Assembly: GCA_964372755.1 (NCBI GenBank) | Contig: CAYJQX010000004.1 | Coordinates: 10,766 to 74,765, forward strand | Reading direction: 5' to 3' | DNA: 64,000 nucleotides | Origin: an uncultured Candidatus Saccharibacteria bacterium | GTDB taxonomy: Bacteria; Patescibacteriota; Minisyncoccia; UBA9983 | The notes under the pieces: generated by a model | Told to the model about the DNA's origin: nothing | Database searches by the model: none | Seen by the model: only the letters and a program-made list of their open reading frames with translations | Translations under genes and position numbers: made by a program | Shown: piece by piece, positions 791-60,577 of the stretch | Layout: every line of letters starts with the position of its first letter | How positions within the stretch are numbered: the first letter of the stretch is position 1

Positions 791-3472
791 ATGAATCCAT
801 TTTCAAATTTTACCGTTAAAGCTCAGGAGGCCCTGCGCAAGGCGCATGAGTTGGCTATTGAGAGAGGACAAAACCAAATAGACCCGATGCATCTTCTAGC
901 TGCTCTTACCCTGCAGGACGATAGTCTGGTCCTCTCTATCTTAGAAAGACTAGAGATAGATGTTAATTTCCTCGCAGACTCTATTTTGGAAAATTTAGCT
1001 GAAGGAGAGTCGGCTACTTTGGCTTCGCCTGGTTTCCAAATTTATCTTTCCCCAGAACTTGGACGAATCTTGGAGTCCTCGCAGAAAATCGCTCAGTTTT
1101 TGAAGGATGATTATGTTTCTACCGAACATCTTTTTATGGCGCTTCTGGATGTTGCTTCTCCTGCCAAAGACTTGCTGGAACGTTTCAAGGTGGACAAGGA
1201 AAAGGTGATGAGAGTCTTGAAAGAATTTCGCGACGTGCGTTCTGCTGAAATAAAAGAGCCCAAAAAACTTCGCCTGATAGAAAAATATACTCGCAATCTT
1301 ACGGATTTGGCGAGAAGCGATAAACTTGATCCGATTATTGGGAGAGAAGAGGAAATTCGCAGGGTTATGCAGATTCTTTCTCGCCGAACAAAAAACAATC
1401 CGATTTTGATCGGTGAGGCGGGAGTGGGAAAAACGGCCATTGCCGAAGGCCTGGCTCTTCGCATTGGCAAGGGCGATGCCCCAGAATCTCTCAAAGAAAA
1501 AGAAATAGTTTCTCTTGATTTGGGACTTTTAGTTGCGGGAACAAAGTATCGCGGGGAATTTGAAGAGCGCCTAAAAGGCATAATGAAAGAGGTAGAGAGA
1601 GCGCAAGGTAAAATAATTTTGTTTGTGGATGAGATTCATACGATTGTGGGCGCCGGAGCGGCCGAGGGAGCTATTGATGCTTCCAATATGTTGAAGCCCG
1701 CTTTGGCCCGAGGAGAACTTAGAATGATAGGGGCTACCACCTTGAAAGAATATCAAAAGCATATAGAAAAAGATCCGGCTCTCACTCGCAGATTTCAACC
1801 AGTTTATGTGGAAGAGCCTTCGCAGGAAGATGCCATCGCTATTCTTCGCGGGTTAAAAGAAAAATACGAACTTTTCCATGGAGTGAAAATTACCGATGAA
1901 GCCATTCGAGCCTCCGTGCACCTTTCGAGGCGTTATATTACCGACAGATTTTTGCCGGACAAAGCGGTAGACTTGATTGATGAAGCCGCTTCGGCTTTGC
2001 GTTTGCAATTAGATAGCATGCCCGAGGAGCTTGAGAGAGTCCATCGGGAAATCATGAAGTTAGAAATTGAAAAAGAATCTTTGAAAAAAGATAAAGGTGA
2101 AGGTAAGAGGGTGAAAGAAATTGAAAAAGAAATCAGCAACTTAAAGGAAAAAACTTCTGGTTTGGAGATAAAATGGAAAAACGAAAAAGGTTCTCTTGCC
2201 AGCATCAATACTATGAAAAGAGAGATAGAAGCTTTGCGTTTTGAAGCTGAAAACGCCGAGCGTATGGCCGATTTTTCTCGAGTGGCGGAAATTAGATACG
2301 GCCAGCTGTCTTTCCTTGAAAAACAGGTTCAAGCGGAAGAGAAAAAACTTAAACGCCTTCAGTCATCGAGGCAAATTCTTAAGGAAGTGATTAACGAGGA
2401 AGATGTTGCCAGTGTCGTTTCCAAATGGACGGGTATTCCCGTTGTCAAAATGCTCCAAGAAGAAGCTCAAAAATTAATGTCTATGGAGACGGAGTTGAAG
2501 AAAAGAATTGTGGGTCAAGATGAAGCTATTTCTAAAATTTCAAACGCAGTCCGTAGATCTCGAGCAGGCGTGGGGGATGAAGACAGGCCAATCGGCTCCT
2601 TTATGTTTCTGGGGCCAACCGGAGTTGGAAAAACTTATTTGGCTCAAAGTTTGGCAGAGTTTATGTTTGCGAGCGAGAAAGCTTTGGTAAGGATTGACAT
2701 GTCCGAGTACATGGAAAAACACACAGTCTCCAAATTTATCGGCGCGCCGGCCGGCTATGTCGGCTATGAAGAAGGAGGCCAGCTTACGGAAATTATTCGT
2801 CACAGGCCGTATTCGGTGGTACTTTTTGACGAAATAGAAAAGGCTCACCCGGAGGTTTTCAACATTATGTTGCAAATTTTAGACAATGGCCATTTAACAG
2901 ACTCCAAAGGAAGAAAAGTGAATTTTAAAAACACTATTCTTATTATGACTTCAAATATCGGCTCGGAACATATCCGCCGGATGTCTTCAGTTGGTTTTCT
3001 GACGAACAATAGTTCCGAAGAAGCGCGTAGGGAAGGAGATTTGAAGGAAAAAATAAGGGAAGCATTAGAATCTAATTTTCGTCCGGAGTTTTTGAATCGT
3101 CTGGATGAGATTGTTATTTTCAACAGCCTAGCGCAAGAAAATGTCCAGGAAATAGCTAAACTTCAAATCGAGAAAACAAAGAAAAGATTACTGGATAAAG
3201 AAATAACACTTATTATTTCCCCGATTGCCTTGGAACAACTTGCTAAACAAGGATATGACCAGAATTATGGAGCTAGACCAATGAAGAGGTTTATTCAATC
3301 AAAAATTTTAAATCCCGTAGCGGAAGCCTTGATTTCTGGCAAAGCCATCTCTGGAGACTCGGTTTTTGTGGATTTCAAAGACGGGCAATTTGTTGTGGAG
3401 ACTCAAAAGAAGAAAAAAATTTCTAATACCAAAATTTCTCAAAAAACTCAAAAGGAAAAAATCCTCTCCTAA
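791..3472 (+). CDS. clpB: ATP-dependent chaperone ClpB (Clp N-domain, two AAA+ modules, coiled-coil middle domain)
   Basis: The protein is 893 aa. Walker [16 protein letters not shown] sits in NBD1 and LGPTGVGKT in NBD2. A long coiled-coil M-domain lies between them, and the C-terminus is Clp-like. Confidence 0.95.
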
Positions 3473-3588
3473 TCTTTCCATATGAGGATGTCGGACGGAG
3501 GCATAGGACGATATTAAGTTTTGACTCAGAGGAGTATCTTTAGTACTCTGATTTTGGGGTATATTGATTAATGTGGTTTAGAATTATT

Positions 3589-3672
3589 GCAGGGATGGTG
3601 GAGTGGTCAATCACAACAGACTGTAAATCTGTCGGCCTACGGCCTACGCAGGTTCAAATCCTGCTCCCTGCA
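3589..3672 (+). tRNA. tRNA-Tyr (anticodon GTA), with a long variable arm
   Basis: The 7-bp acceptor gcaggga/tccctgc and the anticodon loop ctGTAaa are hand-folded. There is a long variable arm (tcggcctacggcctacgc) and a T-loop ggttcaaatcc. Confidence 0.85.
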
Positions 3673-3719
3673 TTGAAATAAAAAGGAGATTCTCACAGCA
3701 CCTATGTTTTTAAAAAGGC

Positions 3720-3747
3720 TTGCTTCCTAGCTTCTTTTGTGTATAAT
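3720..3747 (+). promoter_or_regulatory. Putative sigma70-type promoter for rpmG (TTGCTT-16-TATAAT)
   Basis: TTGCTT at 3720-3725 and TATAAT at 3742-3747 are separated by a 16-nt spacer. The element ends 11 nt upstream of the rpmG ATG. Confidence 0.4.
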
Positions 3748-3757
3748 TTGGCTTGTT

Positions 3758-3916
3758 ATGTCACAAGACTTTCTAATCAAACTTCAGTGCGCTACCTGCA
3801 AACGGGTGAACTATTGGAGCCGTAAAAACAAGAAAAAAGTGGAGCGCAAAATTGAGCTCAAGAAGTTCTGTCGTTGGTGCAAAAAACAGACTATACACAA
3901 GGAGGGAAAGAAATAG
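3758..3916 (+). CDS. rpmG: 50S ribosomal protein L33 (52 aa). It is absent from the ORF track because it is shorter than 60 aa.
   Basis: The translation is MSQDFLIKLQCATCKRVNYWSRKNKKKVERKIELKKFCRWCKKQTIHKEGKK. It has the C-x2-C...C-x2-C zinc-ribbon pattern and the KHTxHKE tail typical of L33. The tRNA-Tyr / rpmG / tRNA-Trp order is a classical conserved arrangement. Confidence 0.85.
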   Translation: MSQDFLIKLQCATCKRVNYWSRKNKKKVERKIELKKFCRWCKKQTIHKEGKK

Positions 3917-4010
3917 GTTTCGAAAAAGAAGGGTTTCTGAAAATTTAGAAAAATCGTCAACATTATGGCGATTTTTTGATTTTTGGCTATAATAAAAGAG
4001 GCTAAAATAT

Positions 4011-4081
4011 GGGGGTTTAGTTAAGTGGTACCCGCCCGACTGAATGATCTCTAAGGCTTTAGTCGTTCGGGCGGGTAACGG
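4011..4081 (+). other. tRNA-like 5' fragment (pseudo-tRNA-Trp leader) interrupted by a GC-rich hairpin. It is not a foldable tRNA.
   Basis: gggggtttagttaagtggta (4011-4030) resembles the 5' acceptor/D region of the downstream tRNA-Trp (gggggtgtaggcttaacggtaa). An 8-bp stem cccgcccg/cgggcggg (4031-4038 and 4068-4075) follows. Then taacgg resumes the D-loop. No 3' acceptor partner exists. A TATAAT lies at 3988-3993. Confidence 0.4.
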
Positions 4082-4128
4082 CGGTCTCCGAACTTAGAAA
4101 TGAGTGAGTGATAGTTTTTAAAAAAAAT

Positions 4129-4203
4129 GGGGGTGTAGGCTTAACGGTAAACTGCCTCTCTCCAAAAGAGGATTTTCAGGTTCGAGTCCTGGCACCCCCG
4201 CCA
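4129..4203 (+). tRNA. tRNA-Trp (anticodon CCA), with the 3' CCA encoded
   Basis: The acceptor gggggtg/caccccc is 7 bp. The anticodon stem is cctct/agagg with loop ctCCAaa. The T-arm is tcagg-ttcgagt-cctgg. The sequence ends in a discriminator g plus CCA. Confidence 0.8.
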
Positions 4204-4329
4204 TTTTTTCTTAGATAGGAAAGAGGGAGAAATAAGTAGATAAACATCCCAAAGACCTCTATCTTTTTTTAGGATATAATTAATGAAACTAGGTCGAAAC
4301 AAAAAATTATCAAAATAATAAAATAAAAA

Positions 4330-6237: not shown

Positions 6238-7596
6238 ATAAGTCTGGAGATACCCCCAAGTGTGGAGCCTATCGCTATCATATGACCACTTGGCGCCAAT
6301 ATCGGTGCGATAGAGCATGTTTGGGATGACAATATTTTTGACTTTGGCGTAAACGCTTTTGCGGGCGTCCTCCACCGTGGTGCCGGTGTCGGCTACAACC
6401 ATCAAAACTCCCGATTGGCCGGCGATGCGCATAGTGCCATTATCGTACCAGACATCTTCTATGTGGATGCCTTCGTAGTCGGGATCATGTTTTTTAAAAA
6501 CAATAGCCAAATCTTTATAAACCTGAATAAGATCGCTGTTGCCTCCCGATTTGGCGAAATATGATGGCACCAAAATACGCACGCCTATCTGGAAGCCTTT
6601 TTTTGTTTTGAGCTCAAAATTTTCCCCTGAAGCCAGTTTGTAGAGCCATTCGCCGGCAGGCATGGAAATACCTTCTTGCTGTATTTGGATAGTCGGATAA
6701 CCGAAACGGGATGTCCATTCAAGAGGATAAATGCCTTTGCCGTTTACGATGCAGTTGATGTCTATATAGCCCACATATCCGGATTCGCGAAGAGCCGGAA
6801 GAGCTTTTTCTAAGGTGGCCTTAAAAATATTATTGGGTCTGCTCCAATACATCAGAGTGCCCATCTCGCCTGTCATCGGGCCGATTTCACCGGCAAAAAT
6901 TCTTTTGTGTTCGAAGTTGATGTTTATAGGGTAGATAAAATCATAGCCGTTGAAAAAAGCGCCGACGCCGATTTCCACGCCCGAGATAAATTTTTGAAGA
7001 ATAAATTTGGAAACCTTTTTTTCCCAGACATTTTTGTTTTGTTCAAAGAGCTCAATCATCTCCTTGCCGTCCTCGTCTTCACCGATAAAGAAAAGACCGC
7101 TTCCGCCCGGAGGGGTGAGACCGCTTGGTTTAAAAACATAACGGCCCGGATTGTCGCGGATAAAATTTATGGCTTCATTGTAGCTTTCGAAATTTTGATA
7201 GGGCAGAACATTGACCCCCAGTTTTTTTAACTCTGATTGGCCAAAATCTCTGTCGGCCTCCAAGCGATCGGTATAGACGCTTCCACCCACGACCTTCTTG
7301 CCTTTTTTTCGGAGCTTGTCGGCGATCTCGCCGAATTCAATATCGTCAAAAACAATCACATCGGCCCAATCCGCGTGTGATTCCCAATTGTCCACTTTTT
7401 GCACGAAGCCGTTATACACATCGGCATCGTCTTTGTTTTTTATATAAACTTTAACTTCGTTTCCTTCTTTTGCCACATGCCATGCCAAATCCCCACTTAA
7501 CGATTCCCACGAGACGAAAAGGAATTTTTTTGGCGCAGAAGGGCTTTTTCCGCCGTTGCCGTTTTCCTCCAGAGAAGCGCCGTTGCCGTTTGCCAT
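6235..7596 (-). CDS. PurD-family ATP-grasp protein (phosphoribosylamine--glycine ligase-like) with a divergent N-terminal motif and a low-complexity N-terminal tail
   Basis: The protein aligns by eye with E. coli PurD. EHKRIFAGEIGPMTGEMG corresponds to DHKRVGDKDTGPNTGGMG. IDINCIVNGKGIYPLEWTSRFGYP corresponds to [22 protein letters not shown]. The conserved N-terminal SGGREH is replaced by WESLSGD. The first 25 aa (MANGNGASLEENGNGGKSPSAPKK) are low-complexity. Confidence 0.7.
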   Translation of the reverse strand: MANGNGASLEENGNGGKSPSAPKKFLFVSWESLSGDLAWHVAKEGNEVKVYIKNKDDADVYNGFVQKVDNWESHADWADVIVFDDIEFGEIADKLRKKGKKVVGGSVYTDRLEADRDFGQSELKKLGVNVLPYQNFESYNEAINFIRDNPGRYVFKPSGLTPPGGSGLFFIGEDEDGKEMIELFEQNKNVWEKKVSKFILQKFISGVEIGVGAFFNGYDFIYPININFEHKRIFAGEIGPMTGEMGTLMYWSRPNNIFKATLEKALPALRESGYVGYIDINCIVNGKGIYPLEWTSRFGYPTIQIQQEGISMPAGEWLYKLASGENFELKTKKGFQIGVRILVPSYFAKSGGNSDLIQVYKDLAIVFKKHDPDYEGIHIEDVWYDNGTMRIAGQSGVLMVVADTGTTVEDARKSVYAKVKNIVIPNMLYRTDIGAKWSYDSDRLHTWGYLQTY

Positions 7597-49186: not shown

Positions 49187-51181
49187 ATGTATAAAAAATT
49201 GATTGTTGCTGGTTTTTTGATAGCGGGATTCGCCTTTTTTTCTACTGCAAATGCGCAGGCTCTTACAACGGCGCAAATCGATGCGATAATTAGCCTTCTG
49301 CGTTCTTTTGGGGCTGAAGAAAACGTGATTGCCAATGTTGAAAATAATCTTTATGGCCGTTCCTCGGGTTCGGGCGGTTCTGACTATCCAAATTATTGTC
49401 CGCAACTGAATTACAACTTGTATCTTGATTTAGTGGATGAAGGAACGGAAGGAGAAGTATCAAAACTTCAAAAATTTCTTGCCCAATACAGTAATATTTA
49501 CCCAGAAGGAAATATTACTGGCTTCTTTGGCCCATCTACAGAACGAGCTGTGCAGAGATGGCAAGCGCAAAACGGAGTAGTGTCTTCTGGTTCTCCGGAG
49601 ACTACCGGATATGGCGTGGTTGGACCTAAGACAAGAGAAGCGATTAATAAATTGTGCGGAAAAGTTACAAATCCCAATCCTATACCTGTTACAGAAAGTC
49701 CTTATATAACCTCTACCGGGGCTAAAGCCGCTGGTAATTTTGAGATGGATGCAGGGGGTGAGCTTTGGATTTATGGAACAAATTTAGTGGGAAAAAATTC
49801 TGTTTTGCCTAAAGTATTTATTGGAAACACTGAGTCCGTTGTGAAATCTGCAAGCAAAGAATCTTTAACCGTAAGCGTGCCTGTTTCATTAACCTCTGGT
49901 TTGACCTACAATGTTTATATTTCAAATGAAAACGGGGTAAGTAATACGGTGTATGTGAAAGTTTTAGGCAAATCAGGTTCTCCACCCCCAGTTACTTCGG
50001 CGTATCCGTCAATTACAGTGATTTATCCTAACGGAGGAGAAATTCTTACGTTCACGAAGGATAAAGATCTGGGTCTGGATTTTATGGCAAAATGGAAATA
50101 TGTAGATCTTGTGGGTAATGTGACAGCTTATCTGAAATTTACGGATGGTTTGACATGTAAAATAAAAACAGTGCCTGTTTCCGAAAACTATATGACTGCT
50201 AGTTTGGGAGAAAATTACAAATGCCCGAATGCAAACAGGAATGTGACCCCGGGTCAATACAAAGTTCTTTTAGAGCCAGATAACGGGGATTCCTCAAAGC
50301 CAAACAAGTATAGTGATGAAAGCGATAATTATTTTGTTGTTAATCATCCTACGCAACAGCAAACACAGGCAACCTTCCGTGTGTCTTCCGACCCAAGAAT
50401 GGTTTTTAGTGATACCGCTTATGCCGGACAGGAGAAGGTGATGCTTGGACGTTACAATCTAACTGCGGAGAGTAAAGACATAAAAATTACTTCCTTTAAA
50501 GCTCTAAGTTCAGCCTCGGTTTTAAAGATGTTCAAAAATATCATTCTTTTTAACTCGGAAGGTAATGTTGTTATAGGTCATGGAAATATTACGAATGTCA
50601 ACGCCACAGGAACACCGTCGCAATCACAGGTAGATTTTAATATTTCTTTTATCGTGCCTGCGGGGACCACAAAAAATGTGTTTTTCTTGGGCGATTTAAG
50701 TGAAAATGCTCCTTCGGAGACATTAAATTTCAATTTCTTTAATCTGGGACTTTCGGATAAGAACGCAAAGATTGAATACTCAAATGCGCGTTCTCTTACT
50801 CTCAAAGTTGAACCCAAAACATGTCTGACTGATAGCGCTCAATTTGTAAGCCAGGACAGTATTCCTACGAGTATTACTGCCGGCAAAGAATTTACGGTGA
50901 CATTAAAAATGAAAAATACCGGATGTTCAACGTGGGTAAAAGACAACAACAACCCATTTTCTCTGGGAGTACGCCCTGTTGATAATTATACTTGGAGACT
51001 TGGAAGAATAAGCGCTATGGAAAAAGAGGTAAAACCGGGTGAAATTGGCACTTTCACCGCCACCCTTGCCGCCCCTAAAATCGCGGGTACATATCAGTTT
51101 CAATGGCAAATGGTAAAAGAATATTTCCGCTGGTTTGGCGAGCTCACAAAATCTGTGATGGTTACGGTGACGAATCCTTAA
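49187..51181 (+). CDS. Secreted or anchored large protein with an N-terminal peptidoglycan-binding (PG_binding_1-like) domain and beta-rich repeats
   Basis: A signal/TM is present at MYKKLIVAGFLIAGFAFFSTANA. LQKFLAQYSNIYPEGNITGFFGPSTERAVQRWQAQNGV matches the PG-binding consensus (LQ..L...DG.FG..T..AV..FQ...GL). The rest is Ser/Thr/Asn-rich and predicted beta. Confidence 0.65.
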   Translation: MYKKLIVAGFLIAGFAFFSTANAQALTTAQIDAIISLLRSFGAEENVIANVENNLYGRSSGSGGSDYPNYCPQLNYNLYLDLVDEGTEGEVSKLQKFLAQYSNIYPEGNITGFFGPSTERAVQRWQAQNGVVSSGSPETTGYGVVGPKTREAINKLCGKVTNPNPIPVTESPYITSTGAKAAGNFEMDAGGELWIYGTNLVGKNSVLPKVFIGNTESVVKSASKESLTVSVPVSLTSGLTYNVYISNENGVSNTVYVKVLGKSGSPPPVTSAYPSITVIYPNGGEILTFTKDKDLGLDFMAKWKYVDLVGNVTAYLKFTDGLTCKIKTVPVSENYMTASLGENYKCPNANRNVTPGQYKVLLEPDNGDSSKPNKYSDESDNYFVVNHPTQQQTQATFRVSSDPRMVFSDTAYAGQEKVMLGRYNLTAESKDIKITSFKALSSASVLKMFKNIILFNSEGNVVIGHGNITNVNATGTPSQSQVDFNISFIVPAGTTKNVFFLGDLSENAPSETLNFNFFNLGLSDKNAKIEYSNARSLTLKVEPKTCLTDSAQFVSQDSIPTSITAGKEFTVTLKMKNTGCSTWVKDNNNPFSLGVRPVDNYTWRLGRISAMEKEVKPGEIGTFTATLAAPKIAGTYQFQWQMVKEYFRWFGELTKSVMVTVTNP

Positions 51182-56192: not shown

Positions 56193-57899
56193 TTACCTTG
56201 TACTACGCGGGGAAAGAAGCTCCAAAATCGGCCATAGGACTGTTCCTAGCAGGGAAGGAGACGACCACGATGCAGGCTCACTTGGGGCAGGAGGAGCTTG
56301 TTGTTCAAAAGATGGGGAAGAGGGTTGAGAAGGCATAGTTTCAAAAGAGGACGGCATCATAGTGGGTTCGCTCGTCATATTTGCGGGTGGGGCAAATGAA
56401 CCAGAAGAAGGAGGAATATTTCCTTGCATATCCCGAAAATCTCCGGTTGCAGGTATCATATTTCTCTCTTCCATCATTCTCTTTTCTTGTTCAAACCTCA
56501 TCATGTCATTAGTCTGAAACTCCTCCTCGGAAGGCATTCTCTCACCTTCTCTCATCATTCTTTCTTTTTCATCTCGCATCATATCATTCATCTGAAAATC
56601 TTTTTGTTGTTGGAATTGAGGCGGGAGGTTTCTATTTTGGTTCTCAAACATCCGCCCTCTCATTTCCATCTCCATATTTTTTTGTCTTTCTTTTGGAAAA
56701 GAAGGGAAATCTCTTTTCATCTTTTCGTTGCTTTGATTTTCTTGCATGGCTCGGCTATTTAAAGATTCGCGAATGCACTCCTCCACTTTTCTATGAATTT
56801 CTTCTCTTGCGTTTTCATCTTTAGCTTCGGCGGCTATCCTGCCACATTCCTCCGCGCCCGGAACATTTGTTGGGAAATTTGGTCGGTCCCCCTTATTTTC
56901 TTTTTCAGGTCCGCCAAAAAATCTACCTTCGTTAAATTCTCCTTTTTCAAATCTTTCTTGAACATCGCTGAAGCTCTTAATCCTTTTTTCTAGACCATGG
57001 TTTTTGGAAAACTGAAGACATGTTTGAATGTTTTCCGGGGCTGAACAAAAATCAGAACAAGATTGGGCGGAATCACAACCCCCCGGACCAGCTGGCCTGC
57101 TTTGATTTCCGTTGCCACTCATTTGGGGAGGGGAAAATCCGAGTTTTTCGCCAAAAGCTCGACATTCTTCAAAATGGTCGCTACTGGAGCAATAAGCCTC
57201 ACAAGCTTGTTTAGATTGGCAGGCTCCCGGAGTCTCTCCTTTTTTGGACAGTTCAATAAATTTCCTGATACCTTCGCGTGGCAACGGTGCCGTATTGTTG
57301 CTTTCCTCGTTTATATCGTGGTCTATGCCTGCTGCCTCGGCGAAAGCAAGACATTCTTCAGCGTGGGTGAAATCGGAGCAATAAGCCTCACATTCTCCTC
57401 TAGATTTACAACTGCCCGGAGTGGTGCCTCCTTTTTTCAAAAATTCTTGCATTTTTCTACCGGACTCAATATGTTTTCCTTCCACTCCTTGTTTTTTTGC
57501 AAAGTCCATGCATTCATCCATGTGGTCTAAGTTTTCACAGTAAGCTTCACAAGCCTTCGGGGAATCGCATTGGCCCGGACCGTTTTTATCGCGGATGGCT
57601 TTAGAAAACTTCTTGGCTTTCTCCGCTTCCTCACTTTTCATAAGCCCCTTTTTTTCGGCAAAAGCAATACAACTTTCTATATTTGAGGGATCATCGCAAT
57701 AAGCTTTACAAGCCTTTTTGTCTTCACAGTTTCCCAGTTCTTTAATAGGAAAAACAATGCCGGCGCTTGCAATCTGCTCCTCGCTTGGTTCTTCGGGAAT
57801 ATTCGTTTCTTCCTCTGCCCTAACACTCAAAGCCCCGACAATCATCAGACTGGAGATAAAAACGGATACGAAAAAAACTTTTTTATTATTTCTGTGCAT
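56193..57899 (-). CDS. Secreted cysteine-rich repeat protein (five tandem C-x5/6-C-x3-C-x10/11-C modules, then an M/R/E/Q-rich low-complexity region and a P/S-rich tail)
   Basis: The signal peptide is MHRNNKKVFFVSVFISSLMIVGALSVRAEE. The five repeats run CEDKKACKAYCDDPSNIESCIAF, CDSPKACEAYCENLDHMDECMDF, CKSRGECEAYCSDFTHAEECLAF, CQSKQACEAYCSSSDHFEECRAF and CDSAQSCSDFCSAPENIQTCLQF. Confidence 0.65.
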   Translation of the reverse strand: MHRNNKKVFFVSVFISSLMIVGALSVRAEEETNIPEEPSEEQIASAGIVFPIKELGNCEDKKACKAYCDDPSNIESCIAFAEKKGLMKSEEAEKAKKFSKAIRDKNGPGQCDSPKACEAYCENLDHMDECMDFAKKQGVEGKHIESGRKMQEFLKKGGTTPGSCKSRGECEAYCSDFTHAEECLAFAEAAGIDHDINEESNNTAPLPREGIRKFIELSKKGETPGACQSKQACEAYCSSSDHFEECRAFGEKLGFSPPQMSGNGNQSRPAGPGGCDSAQSCSDFCSAPENIQTCLQFSKNHGLEKRIKSFSDVQERFEKGEFNEGRFFGGPEKENKGDRPNFPTNVPGAEECGRIAAEAKDENAREEIHRKVEECIRESLNSRAMQENQSNEKMKRDFPSFPKERQKNMEMEMRGRMFENQNRNLPPQFQQQKDFQMNDMMRDEKERMMREGERMPSEEEFQTNDMMRFEQEKRMMEERNMIPATGDFRDMQGNIPPSSGSFAPPANMTSEPTMMPSSFETMPSQPSSPSFEQQAPPAPSEPASWSSPSLLGTVLWPILELLSPRSTR

Positions 57900-57904
57900 A
57901 TTTT

Positions 57905-58138
57905 TTATTCAAATGGGTTTTTATACGTTCCTTTAATGGGATTTGGAATTGGGGCAACTGTCTCCGGCAGAGCGTCTTGAACGGGATTAGAGATGTTTCC
58001 ATAAATCTCGCTTCCCAAATTTTTTGCCGAATCAGACTCGTTTTTTTCTTCGGGTTTTGGTTTTTTCCAATAAAAAAAGATAAGGCCGACAATTAAAATA
58101 ATTACTCCTATTGAGATGATATATTTTGCTTTTTCCAT
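57905..58138 (-). CDS. Hypothetical small membrane-anchored protein (77 aa)
   Basis: An N-terminal TM (IISIGVIILIVGLIFFYW) is followed by a Pro-rich tail. It lies 5 nt downstream of the preceding gene. Confidence 0.4.
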   Translation of the reverse strand: MEKAKYIISIGVIILIVGLIFFYWKKPKPEEKNESDSAKNLGSEIYGNISNPVQDALPETVAPIPNPIKGTYKNPFE

Positions 58139-58254
58139 ATACTCTCATTTTAGATAATCTCTATATCTAGACAAGAATAAAGATGATACTTGTGGATAAC
58201 CTTAACCCCACTCTAAAGAAGACCGACTTCGTTAGAGTGGGGTGGGGTTTGACT

Positions 58255-59643
58255 TTAGTCAATTTTAGTTACCAAATATTTTGTTCCATTATCTCGAATA
58301 GAATATCCAAGCGCTTCTATTTTATCCCGCAGTTCATCCGATTTTTGCCAGTCTTTGTTTTTGCGGGCGAGTTCGCGTTCTTTTGCAAGCGCAATTACTT
58401 CCGTTGGAATTTCGGCAGGGGACTCGGAAGCGATTTTATCAAATCCGAGCCCTAAAACTTTATCAAAATCCAAAACGGTTTCCAGCGTGCTGGTTTTTAG
58501 GCTTTCCTCCAAAACCGCTAAGGCCGCTGGGGTATTAAAATCATCTTCTAGTGCTTCTCTAAACTTCTTAGATAATATTTCATCAACTTTTCCGTAAGAC
58601 AGGGAAGTGATTTTATTTTTAATTCTTTTTAGCCCACTTGAAGCGGATTCAAGCGCTTCCCAAGTGAAATTTTGTTTTGACCTGTAATGTGCTTGAAGAA
58701 AAAAATATCGCAAATCTTCTGGCAAAAACCCTTTGCTTGTAATTTCATCGAGCGTAAAACCCGTCCCTTCGGATTTGGCCATTTTTTTGCCTTCAATAAG
58801 CAGATGTTCGTTGTGCATCCAATAATTTACAAAAGGTTTGCCGTTTGCGGATTCGCTTTGGGCGATTTCGTTTGTGTGATGGATACTGATATGTTCCACG
58901 CCCCCCATATGAATATCTATGGTCTCGCCTAAAAATTTTTTGATCATAGCAGAGCATTCTATGTGCCAGCCGGGAAAGCCTTCTCCGTTTGGAGCGAGAG
59001 AGGAGTGAAAAGGGGATCCCCATGTTTGCAGGGCGTTTTTATGGTCGCCGGCTTTGAAAAACCATACAGCAAAATCCTGTAAGTTTCTTTTTTTTGTATC
59101 TTTAACACGCCCTAGGCCCGCGCCAGACTCTTGTTTACTTAAATCTTGGCCGGAAAGAGCGGAGTAATTTTTGGCTTTTCCCGTGTCAAAATAAACGGCA
59201 AGAGGAGTTTCGTAGGCATATCCCTTGTCTATTAAAATTTTTACCATTTCTATAATTTCGGGAATAGTTTCGGTGGCGCGAGGCTTACGCGTTGGCTCCA
59301 AAATATTTAAGGCATTTACGTCGCGCTCAAATTGAGTGATGTATTTATTAGCGATTTCATTAGGTGATAAGCCTTCTCGCTTAGCCCCTTTCTCCATTTT
59401 GTCTTCACCCTCATCTTCATCGGAGACCAAATGCCCAACATCGGTGTAATTTCGCACGTAACTAACGTTGTAGCCAAAATACATAAGTGCTCGCCTCACG
59501 ATATCGCCCATAACCATAGCGCGCATATTGCCGATATGTTGAGTCCAATAGACCGTCGGCCCGCATTGGTAAAAAGAAATCTCTTCTTTTCTAAGAGGAG
59601 AGAATGTTTCTTTTTGACGGCTTAAAGTGTGGAATATTCGCAT
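58255..59643 (-). CDS. cysS: Cysteinyl-tRNA synthetase
   Basis: MRIFHTLSRQKETFSP...FYQCGPTVYWTQHIGNMR corresponds to the CysRS N-terminus and HIGH region. KMAKSEGT is the KMSKS motif. Starting at ATG 59643 avoids overlap with the upstream gene; the track start at 59751 is probably an over-extension. Confidence 0.9.
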   Translation of the reverse strand: MRIFHTLSRQKETFSPLRKEEISFYQCGPTVYWTQHIGNMRAMVMGDIVRRALMYFGYNVSYVRNYTDVGHLVSDEDEGEDKMEKGAKREGLSPNEIANKYITQFERDVNALNILEPTRKPRATETIPEIIEMVKILIDKGYAYETPLAVYFDTGKAKNYSALSGQDLSKQESGAGLGRVKDTKKRNLQDFAVWFFKAGDHKNALQTWGSPFHSSLAPNGEGFPGWHIECSAMIKKFLGETIDIHMGGVEHISIHHTNEIAQSESANGKPFVNYWMHNEHLLIEGKKMAKSEGTGFTLDEITSKGFLPEDLRYFFLQAHYRSKQNFTWEALESASSGLKRIKNKITSLSYGKVDEILSKKFREALEDDFNTPAALAVLEESLKTSTLETVLDFDKVLGLGFDKIASESPAEIPTEVIALAKERELARKNKDWQKSDELRDKIEALGYSIRDNGTKYLVTKID

Positions 59644-59656
59644 AAGAAGAATTCTT

Positions 59657-60577
59657 CTAAATCCATCTTTTATGTTTAAAAAATATATAAATGCCAAAAC
59701 CGGAAAGAGCAGTAATTGCAAGAATAATCCAGAAATCTCCGGTTGTCCCAAGAATGGGGACAGATTTAGCCGGAACGATAAAAAGATTCAAAATAATCAT
59801 TAAAGGAAAAGTGGCAAAAGCCATCATGGTTAAAGTTTTCATAATCTCGTTTGCTCTATAGGATACCAGAGAATCGTTGGTTGCCTGCAGAGATTCAATT
59901 GTATCTTTATTTGTTTCTAGGGCGTTAAAAAGTCTAGAGTAGTCGCTGTGTAAAAAGCTCATGTAAACGGAAAAATCTTTTCCAAAAAGTTTTCCCCCAT
60001 GATTTTTTAAGGTATGTAAAATTTCTTGATGAGGATGGATTATACGGCGAAAATCCAGAATATCTCTTCTCACGTGGGATATTTTTCTCACTAAGTCGTG
60101 TTTATTATTATGCTGGGAGAAGATTTCTTCTTCCACGGAGAGAATTTTTGTCTGGATTTCATTGAGCTCGTTGATAGACAAGGCATATATTTCTTTGACC
60201 ACCTGAAAAAAAAGCAATCCGGTATCGGTGGGTTGTTTATTTTCTCCGGAGAGAGTGTTTGTTTCAAACATGCGAGCAATTTCGTGCAATATGTTGAAAT
60301 CCCGATAATGGGTGGTGATAAAAAAGTTTTTACCGATAATAAAATCTATTTCTGATTCGGAAAAAATTTTCCTATTTTTGTCGAAATTAGGAAAATGAAG
60401 AATAAGGTAGATTATGTTTTCGTAAGCATCAATTCTTGAACGCGGAGTTTGATAAACCAGCTCGTCGGCTACAAGCGGGTGAATAGGATATTTTTTCATC
60501 AGGTCTCTAACCTCATCGGAGGAAGGATTATCTAAATCTATCCAAACAATTTTTTTCGTCTTATAAATATTAACCAT
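59657..60577 (-). CDS. CorA-family divalent cation transporter-like protein (no canonical GMN motif)
   Basis: A cytoplasmic alpha/beta domain plus long helices is followed by two C-terminal TM helices (MMAFATFPLMIILNLF... and FWIILAITALSGFGIYIFF). The likely start is ATG 60577 (MVNIYKTKKIVWIDL). Confidence 0.65.
   Translation of the reverse strand: MVNIYKTKKIVWIDLDNPSSDEVRDLMKKYPIHPLVADELVYQTPRSRIDAYENIIYLILHFPNFDKNRKIFSESEIDFIIGKNFFITTHYRDFNILHEIARMFETNTLSGENKQPTDTGLLFFQVVKEIYALSINELNEIQTKILSVEEEIFSQHNNKHDLVRKISHVRRDILDFRRIIHPHQEILHTLKNHGGKLFGKDFSVYMSFLHSDYSRLFNALETNKDTIESLQATNDSLVSYRANEIMKTLTMMAFATFPLMIILNLFIVPAKSVPILGTTGDFWIILAITALSGFGIYIFFKHKRWI

Follow-up and report, generated by a model that had tools for sequence, protein, structure and literature searches.

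What kind of protein is built from tandem copies of a four-cysteine unit that no domain library recognizes, and what might such a protein do for an uncultured bacterium? The question is raised by a gene for a 568-residue protein in a 64-kb stretch of DNA (64,000 nucleotides of contig CAYJQX010000004.1, assembly GCA_964372755.1; hereinafter the window), which a preliminary description, made from the letters alone, had singled out as encoding a secreted protein with five tandem 4-Cys modules. We found that the gene is genuine, that its module is strongly conserved and has no known relatives, and that it belongs to a two-gene cassette conserved throughout a class of ultra-small Bacteria and also found in one lineage of ultra-small Archaea. 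The product might best be understood as a helical surface rod stapled by disulfides, and probably held by a small membrane protein whose tail carries Asn-Pro-Phe (NPF) motifs, a reading to which we give about an even chance of being right.

The array of modules can be read directly from the protein. Twenty of its 22 cysteines fall in five modules, every one of which has exactly the pattern C-x5-C-x3-C-x8-C, with cysteine cores at residues 58–77, 111–130, 164–183, 227–246 and 275–294. The five tandem 4-Cys units proposed earlier are thus real, but several of their particulars need to be revised: the last spacing is x8 in all five modules and not x10/11, and the consensus given was one residue short; successive modules lie 53, 53, 63 and 48 residues apart, rather than recurring at about 45; and the cores span nucleotides 57018–57728 of the window, instead of beginning near 57090. 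Whereas five matches to the pattern are observed, 20,000 composition-preserving shuffles of the protein yielded a mean of 0.001, and the six frames of the 64-kb window contain no other match. Pairwise identity between the modules of this protein is merely 26–50%, which indicates that the duplications are old; at the DNA level, Tandem Repeats Finder detected no repeat in the gene. As for cysteine usage in the neighborhood, the genome is Cys-poor across the 64 kb, most open reading frames (ORFs) of at least 90 residues carrying 0–3 cysteines and many none. Among the other products encoded there is an exported-looking 664-residue protein with six cysteines (49187–51181, plus strand), which begins MYKKLIVAGFLIAGFAFFSTANAQALTT.

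The conservation of the module was assessed at two levels. A word-indexed search recovered 826 homologues at E<=1e-3, all unnamed or annotated as 'hypothetical', and the named sources among them are Parcubacteria or unclassified Patescibacteria, with a single exception labelled Pacebacteria; they include Nomura-, Kaiser-, Lipton-, Wildermuth-, Wolfe-, Jorgensen-, Lloyd- and Harrisonbacteria. As almost all named homologues are patescibacterial, the genome can be placed in the Parcubacteria, or Paceibacteria, of the Candidate Phyla Radiation (CPR), in agreement with the CPR setting that had been suggested. A profile of the 42-residue unit, searched against 1.84 billion representatives of clusters at 50% identity, matched 1,900 proteins at E<=1e-3, of which 1,627 also pass E<=1e-10 and 1,100 pass E<=1e-30, and the best 150 matches contain 6–13 matched stretches each. 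The preliminary description had proposed looking for the repeat in related genomes, and about 1,900 such clusters indeed carry it. A hidden Markov model delineated 1,092 full modules in 187 family proteins, with 3–12 per protein and a mode of 5–6, and the four cysteines are complete in all 1,092; accordingly, the decay in relatives that would have marked a pseudogene is not seen in these clusters and modules. The 20 cysteines of the five modules are likewise invariant across 120 aligned sequences. The family consensus reads ..GPGGC-kSkeEC-eAYC-sDPa[HN]mEEC-iaFAEkaG[LF][MI], and module 1 invariably opens with [FY]P[IV]xELGNC; the window protein, with five C-x5-C-x3-C-x8-C modules, where membership calls for at least three, behind a signal peptide and the first starting FPIKELGNC, belongs to the family.

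These data also bear on the most mundane explanation of the locus, namely that the frame arose by chance, is mere low-complexity sequence or is in decay, and has no function. Half of the protein is indeed of low complexity and predicted to be disordered. However, there are hundreds of homologues with invariant cysteines and a conserved partner, the motif occurs far above chance, and the gene order is kept in two domains of life (see below). The frame on the minus strand is intact, as the preliminary description had held; it starts with ATG and has conserved homologues, and the conservation data exclude such an origin, leaving it a probability close to nil.

We then turned to known families and structures. 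For the 568-residue protein, the best match in Pfam-A had E=0.071 (14 bits, as against a cut-off of 24.7 bits) and the best in NCBIfam E=0.011 (15.8 bits, cut-off 45.6), while PHROGs and PADLOC returned zero matches. Against the sequences in the PDB, phmmer reached no better than E=1.1, and the profile of the module unit no better than E=4.7, this being the scorpion toxin BmKK4, which shares only a C-x5-C-x3-C string with the module. A literature search for the exact cysteine spacing gave nothing relevant, and within the literature on cysteine-rich or disulfide-bonded proteins of Parcubacteria, the metatranscriptome paper of Kuroda makes no mention of the module family.

An AlphaFold2 model of the full protein was built with 120 homologues, and a second one for modules 1–3 alone. 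In the full model residues 45–310 form an all-helical array, mostly with a predicted local distance difference test score (pLDDT) above 90, and modules 1–3 reach 91–97; the trimmed model of these three has a pLDDT of 92 and a predicted template modelling score (pTM) of 0.79, which implies that the placement of the modules relative to each other is confidently predicted. Three helices make up each modelled module: a linker of about 15 residues, a short one bearing the second and third cysteines (C2 and C3), and one of 13 residues bearing the fourth (C4); in the models C2 and C3 lie one helical turn apart on the same helix face. DSSP assigned single β-bridge residues at equivalent positions of successive modules (residues 123 and 166), and these are read as probable contacts between modules. 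An alternative that took the bridges for contacts between C1 and C3 inside one module was dropped, since the bridge residues fall in successive modules. Structural comparison with Foldseek covered the PDB, where the best E-value was 0.48 for the full model and 5.0 for the pLDDT 92 model of modules 1–3, and BFVD, where the best was 2.4. Judged from the models, the fold of the module is without a detectable solved relative in these two collections. The earlier statement that the module was not recognizable as a known domain was therefore sound with respect to Pfam-A, NCBIfam, PHROGs, PADLOC, the PDB and Foldseek, and both the domain and the two-gene organization described below are undescribed in the libraries and papers that we searched.

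The faint echo of BmKK4 calls for consideration of a further possibility, in which the protein is a polyprotein precursor that is cut between modules to release small Cys-rich, defensin- or toxin-like peptides acting against hosts or competitors. Tandem Cys-rich units behind a signal peptide would suit such a precursor, and the C-x5-C-x3-C string weakly resembles the cystine-stabilized helix, with the AtDEF-like family PF25052 (E=8.8, also present among the precomputed Pfam hits) joining BmKK4. Both matches, however, are far from significant; the module has four cysteines and not six and is predicted to be all-α; the linker helices belong to a confidently predicted continuous array; no conserved cleavage motif occurs between modules; and beyond the modules, family members always have long stretches without repeats as well as tails, and in some cases lectin domains. 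We regard this possibility as very improbable.

A second line of evidence comes from genomic context. The ORF immediately upstream of the module gene stops 5 nucleotides before its ATG and encodes, on the same strand, a 77-residue protein with a predicted transmembrane helix and a tail ...NPVQDALPETVAPIPNPIKGTYKNPFE that terminates in YKNPFE*, so that its C-terminus has the form ...NPF(x). At least 120 loci were collected from GTDB species genomes by means of a degenerate DNA pattern for the module, and 94 of them have enough upstream DNA for the presence of a partner to be judged; the loci listed derive from Harrison-, Lloyd-, Nealson-, Jorgensen-, Colwell-, Ryan-, Azam-, Sung-, Wolfe-, Yanofsky- and Nomurabacteria and from many unclassified Patescibacteria. 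Directly upstream of the large gene, 83 of the 94 have a small ORF on its strand that ends NP[FLIVMYW]x0-2*, and in 8 more the upstream ORF ends ..NPF plus 3–7 residues, giving a partner in ~91/94 (~97%). The gap between the two genes is mostly 0–10 nucleotides and no obvious Shine-Dalgarno sequence precedes the large gene, which together make translational coupling plausible.

The partners have a median length of 86 residues and share a K-rich start, a transmembrane helix, an aromatic belt, a spacer and a tail with NP motifs, laid out as (S)LGGQI[FY]E..QNP[LV]....PExNPF....NP[FL]K..YKNPF(E). The tails are net acidic, with a median charge of -1.5. The family is defined from genomic context: a single-sequence search with the 77-residue partner retrieved only itself, and no Pfam family matches the partners, the one hit being that of a partner homologue from another locus to an 'NPF' repeat model (E=5e-4), which is below the cut-off and compositional. 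The most conserved parts of the cassette are the extreme C-terminus of the partner and the exported modules of the large protein.

The conserved unit consists of exactly these two genes, found in varying housekeeping contexts; there is no third conserved neighbor, and no other neighboring gene recurs in more than 9 of the loci listed. In the window the neighbors are dnaB and cysS, the latter directly upstream of the cassette (58255–59751, minus strand), and cysS also lies within about 3.4 kb of the cassette in locus L036 (1822–3195). Since the partner alone recurs across loci, the proximity of cysS is probably coincidental. In a scan for promoters and terminators, the number of promoter-like sites such as that listed in Table 1 was no higher in the region than the expectation from shuffled sequence.

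The cassette also occurs in archaea, a fact that, like the upstream partner and the extent of the family, had escaped the preliminary description. On a 33-kb contig labelled 'uncultured archaeon' (L075, with features at 1–1200 and 1951–4290) it lies about 0.8 kb from a gene for alanyl-tRNA synthetase (AlaRS), whose product scores above the archaeal-type equivalog cut-off with 832 bits and has its closest named relatives, at 66–68% identity, in the Aenigmatarchaeota. A sister metagenome-assembled genome, GCA_964372645.1, encodes an AlaRS 87% identical to that of L075, and on a separate 7-kb contig (L128, features at 992–2749 and 6246–7082) it carries a 67-residue partner ending ENPFAFRNPFEYQNPFK together with a 515-residue module protein that is 64% identical to the one on L075. 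L128 also bears a fragment of an isoleucyl-tRNA synthetase (IleRS), which shares 57% identity with the IleRS encoded on L126, a related archaeal contig that also encodes RNA polymerase subunit K. The association of the cassette with housekeeping genes of archaea thus rests on two independent contigs, which makes it unlikely to stem from a chimeric assembly. The simplest reading of these sequence relationships would be a joint transfer of both genes between Paceibacteria and a lineage of the DPANN archaea. A fourth contig, L127, belongs with L075, L128 and L126 among those that bear on the archaeal occurrence, and the locus L036, mentioned above, carries the label Pacearchaeota, by label only.

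With the cassette and its distribution delineated, we considered where the large protein resides and what its cysteines do. Its N-terminus, as read from the sequence, comprises MHRNNKK, a hydrophobic core of 19 residues and SVRA|EEE, which bears out the signal peptide proposed earlier and points to the Sec pathway. By a heuristic that looks for a positively charged N-region and an AXA-like site, 181 of 187 family members carry a comparable signal, while a twin-arginine-like motif is found in just 4 of the 187; the twin-arginine signal of cofactor proteins exported by the Tat (twin-arginine translocation) route, such as Fe-S proteins and Csp1, is likewise wanting in the MHRNNKK region. An even number of cysteines is present in 183 of the 187 mature family proteins (binomial p=5e-49), so that the family displays both features of the disulfide-bonded extracytoplasmic class, namely an export signal and an even cysteine count. 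In CPR genomes an MdbA-like oxidoreductase, often encoded beside VKOR, is reported to be enriched (Meheust et al., preprint 10.1101/335083). Within the 64-kb window there is no evident membrane protein of the DsbA, MdbA or VKOR type that has a CxxC motif, and none of the 1,092 modules has lost a cysteine, which would have given a clue to the pairing. On the strength of Sec rather than Tat export, the even counts, the 2-Cys accessory repeats and domains described below, the otherwise Cys-poor genome, and the MdbA/VKOR pathway reported for the CPR, we infer that the four invariant cysteines form two disulfides per module.

Alternatively, each module might be a metal site, in which the four cysteines bind one ion or small cluster (Zn2+, Fe, or Cu+ through the helical C-x3-C); the protein would then store, buffer or sense metal outside the cytoplasm or act there as a redox element, with further ligands of the Cu(I) type contributed, in the present case, by the Met-rich segment. 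The invariance of all four cysteines, without exception, would be expected of such sites, as would the location of C2 and C3 one turn apart on one helix face. In copper storage proteins the cysteines of the CXXXC motifs are placed in just this way, and the helical C-x3-C of the module is reminiscent of them by analogy. Furthermore, the surface of the module is acidic and conserved, methionine makes up about 10% of the spacer in the window protein, and among the carriers of the cassette are anaerobic DPANN archaea, for which an oxidizing pathway is uncertain. Against these points, the Sec-type signal and the rarity of twin-arginine motifs mean that any cofactor could be inserted only once the protein is outside the cell; there is no conserved His or Asp ligand, position +15 alternating between H and N; the cysteines outside the modules occur two at a time and the second repeat type has two of them, which fits disulfides and not Cys4 sites; Met-richness is not kept in the family, in which the median is 3.6%; and neither Pfam nor NCBIfam yields a match to a metal-binding family, the DUF326/Csp entry included in the case of Pfam. 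We consider both the metal sites and the roles that would follow from them unlikely, though far from negligible. The idea of a 'disulfide-knotted or metal-binding surface adhesin' in the preliminary description is hence plausible in outline, with the evidence leaning to its disulfide half through the Sec signal, the even counts, the 2-Cys repeats and MdbA/VKOR, and with its surface or binding role drawing indirect support from domain fusions in some homologues.

These fusions occur at both ends of the array. Of 9 long homologues, 4 (P0086, P0135, P0196, P0226) carry a Laminin_G_3 domain, a concanavalin A-like lectin fold, C-terminal of the modules (E ~1e-25). In other homologues a β-rich domain of about 100 residues with two cysteines, or a LamG-like domain, is inserted between the signal peptide and module 1, and N-terminal extra domains are carried by P0007, P0086, P0097, P0101, P0104, L020, L028, L038, L078 and L106. 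Such architectures support, indirectly, a location of the array outside the cell alongside binding domains.

The regions behind the array are more variable. Closer homologues (P0016, P0018, P0026, P0027, P0029, P0044, P0059, P0069) have, after the fifth module, 1–5 copies of a second repeat type of about 45 residues with exactly two cysteines (APPEVxxCLKxxLG...GExxRxCFExF), of which the window protein retains a single shortened copy. There follows a spacer that is of low complexity and rich in G, P, E and Q throughout the family. In the window protein it contains the Met/Arg/Glu/Gln-rich stretch noticed at the outset (MRDEKERMMREGERMPSEEEFQTNDMMRFEQEKRMMEERNM, residues 441–481), which includes an internal duplication of about 24 residues (FQMNDMMRDEKERMMREGERM / FQTNDMMRFEQEKRMMEERNM). 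This stretch is certainly present, but with about 10% Met in the spacer against a family median of 3.6% it is a variant, peculiar to its lineage, of a spacer that is of low complexity in general and whose Met-richness is not conserved, rather than the extraordinary element for which it had been taken. The Pro/Ser-rich segment said to follow it was confirmed. The C-termini of the family fall into three classes: a hydrophobic or amphipathic tail (at least 9 of the last 20 residues in LIVFMWA), a 4-Cys ending, and a plain low-complexity end. The 4-Cys ending, DCSxFxxxPSCxY[VA]G...SQNYxxCKQC[FY]P[DN][KR]*, replaces the hydrophobic tail in ~10% of members (P0063, P0091, P0101, P0104, P0109, L022, L054, L094, L095, L101, L106 and others). 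The LPXTG motif is absent from the window protein, and only 2 of the 187 members have an LPx[TSA]G-like string within their last 60 residues.

How, then, might the exported array be retained? The partner has an N-terminus resembling a signal anchor and an acidic tail, many large proteins that lack a hydrophobic tail nonetheless keep it, and the two genes travel together across domains of life; for these reasons we infer that the NPF tail lies outside the membrane and that the partner anchors the rod. A competing proposal is that the small protein is linked to the large one without being its anchor, acting instead as an export, folding or assembly factor, or as a signaling or regulatory partner with a cytoplasmic NPF tail, in which case the contact would be made inside the membrane through the C-terminal hydrophobic tail of the large protein. 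A tight and probably translationally coupled gene pair would be natural under this proposal, the topology of the partner is ambiguous by charge, and the hydrophobic or amphipathic tail that many large proteins themselves possess could sit in or on the membrane. Yet about 40% of the family is devoid of such a tail and still keeps the partner; the short K-rich flank of the partner, like that of an uncleaved signal anchor, together with its acidic tail favors an outside tail; and conservation peaks at the extreme C-terminus of the partner and in the exported modules. We hold the proposal, including its cytoplasmic version, to be distinctly unlikely.

The working that we envisage for the cassette can be put as follows. 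The small gene would be translated just ahead of the large one, across the short gap between them, giving a single-pass protein whose NPx...NPF tail is probably external, and the large gene would give a Sec-exported all-α protein with an array of three-helix modules of about 50 residues at its core. Outside the cytoplasm an MdbA/VKOR-type pathway would form the two disulfides that lock each module, and consecutive modules would pack together into a stiff rod, behind which come the helical low-complexity segment, the disordered Pro/Ser-rich spacer and the short amphipathic tail. The two proteins would form a complex in which the small one holds the exported rod at the membrane, and the rod might serve as a rigid surface scaffold or stalk, to which some lineages add lectin-like or immunoglobulin-like binding domains.

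Several observations weigh against this picture: 1) The cassette is found in DPANN archaea from anoxic settings, where an oxidizing pathway is not established, which favors a cofactor-independent or a metal-based fold. 2) That acidic and basic residues on the module surface are strongly conserved would suit the binding of some conserved ligand, or of an ion, more than a passive stalk. 3) The C-terminal hydrophobic or amphipathic tail is not universal, being present in 110 of the 187 members. 4) The excess of K and R lies at the N-terminal flank of the transmembrane helix in 22 partners and at the C-terminal flank in 43, with 21 ties, so that charge leaves the topology ambiguous. 5) The number of NP motifs in the partner and the number of modules in the large protein are uncorrelated (Spearman rho 0.06). 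The strongly conserved charged surface in particular suggests that the module may, in addition, recognize something conserved, such as the partner tail, an ion or a component of the envelope. Taken at its most far-reaching, the system might be a two-component surface device, made of an NPF-tail membrane protein and a Cys-stapled helical rod of a new fold, that Paceibacteria and Aenigmatarchaeota-like DPANN share by joint horizontal transfer, with the array recognizing the NPF tail or else a conserved ligand, ionic or from the host, and with the whole being central to the way in which the episymbionts make or employ their surface; we offer this fuller version tentatively, and think it rather unlikely to hold in its entirety.

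Paceibacteria rank among the most abundant uncultured bacteria in anoxic systems and in groundwater, and little has been learned of their envelopes or of how they contact hosts. Against this background, a strongly constrained domain without a Pfam entry or a structural relative is fit for the definition of a new family, and a conserved, probably coupled gene pair supplies a concrete interaction hypothesis. The probable crossing between Bacteria and Archaea of similar lifestyles suggests a function for which the kind of cell wall does not matter, and the natural lectin-like fusions point to the cell surface. For the present, what the locus contributes is a new family and a sharply framed hypothesis about its putative function. 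The features on which the argument draws are collected in Table 1.

Table 1. Features of the two-gene cassette, with positions in the window and residues of the encoded proteins
Feature	Window position	Strand	Details
4-Cys-module gene	56193..57899	-	568 residues; ATG start; ORF intact
Predicted Sec signal peptide, residues 1-28	57816..57899	-	Read from sequence; likely cleavage after SVRA; twin-arginine motif absent
Module 1, residues 50-91	57627..57752	-	Cys 58, 64, 68, 77; pLDDT >90; begins FPIKELGNC
Module 2, residues 103-144	57468..57593	-	Cys 111, 117, 121, 130
Module 3, residues 156-197	57309..57434	-	Cys 164, 170, 174, 183
Module 4, residues 219-260	57120..57245	-	Cys 227, 233, 237, 246; preceded by a longer linker of lower confidence
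Module 5, residues 267-308	56976..57101	-	Cys 275, 281, 285, 294; 'N-type' variant (CSAPENIQTC)
2-Cys helical segment, residues 343-380	56760..56873	-	C352, C375; shortened remnant of the APPEVxxCL...RxCFE repeat
Met/Arg/Glu/Gln-rich helical region, residues 403-480	56460..56693	-	Long helices predicted; pLDDT 61-89
Pro/Ser-rich spacer, residues 483-548	56256..56453	-	Predicted disordered; pLDDT <50
C-terminal hydrophobic/amphipathic tail, residues 549-568	56196..56255	-	SLLGTVLWPILELLSPRSTR; from sequence
Partner gene, small membrane protein	57905..58138	-	77 residues; N-terminal transmembrane helix IISIGVIILIVGLIFFYW; NPx-motif tail ending NPIKGTYKNPFE*
Promoter-like site TTGTCT-16-TAAAAT	58147..58174	-	Consensus match only; just upstream of the partner ATG

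Comparison with known systems helps to place the cassette. The pairing of a small helical module, of the helix-loop-helix kind, with a partner that bears repeated Asn-Pro-Phe motifs recalls, as an analogy only, the eukaryotic EH domain and its NPF ligands, from which the present pair differs in having no EF-hand or EH match and in its cellular compartment. The large protein is laid out somewhat like the LPXTG substrates of sortases, with a signal peptide, repeats, a Pro-rich spacer, a short hydrophobic stretch and basic C-terminal residues; here, however, the motif is lacking, and the hydrophobic stretch is only about 14 residues long, often amphipathic and missing from many members. With the CS-αβ defensins, scorpion toxins and α-hairpinins it shares a helical C-x3-C preceded by C-x5, the sole weak echo at the sequence level. 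Those peptides are single small domains with 6 cysteines, or a twin C-x3-C, on a β-sheet or hairpin framework, and in the defensin and toxin fold a C-x-C on a β-strand pairs with the helical C-x3-C, whereas the modules described here have four cysteines apiece, lack a C-x-C, are predicted to be all-α (DSSP assigning helices only), give insignificant matches to them, and are strung into long arrays in proteins of 450–1,500 residues.

The Hcp proteins of Helicobacter, built of Sel1-like repeats, come nearest in likely function together with the anchor-and-surface pairs treated next; they resemble the module proteins in being exported tandem arrays of α-helical repeats, each stapled by cysteines, that form an elongated structure with a putative role in binding. 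Hcp repeats are 36-residue helix pairs with one disulfide that match the Pfam Sel1 family. The unit of the present family, in contrast, has 48–54 residues, three helices and four cysteines at x5/x3/x8, and the window protein gives no match to Sel1 (PF08238) or TPR in Pfam at E<=10; the organisms differ as well, and Hcp is not known to have a partner gene. In SlaB/SlaA of the Sulfolobales and the Csc/WxL cell-surface clusters of lactobacilli and enterococci, a small or stalk protein anchored in the membrane or wall is encoded beside a larger exported protein, which it holds non-covalently at the surface. The cassette may be likened to these in its co-encoded putative anchor and larger exported surface protein, and differs from them in that there is no relation in sequence or domains, the partner is only about 80 residues long with an NPF tail, and no sign of a lattice is seen. 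While no described family matches it in sequence or fold, the large protein would by its general kind be an exported, cysteine-stabilized tandem-repeat surface protein.

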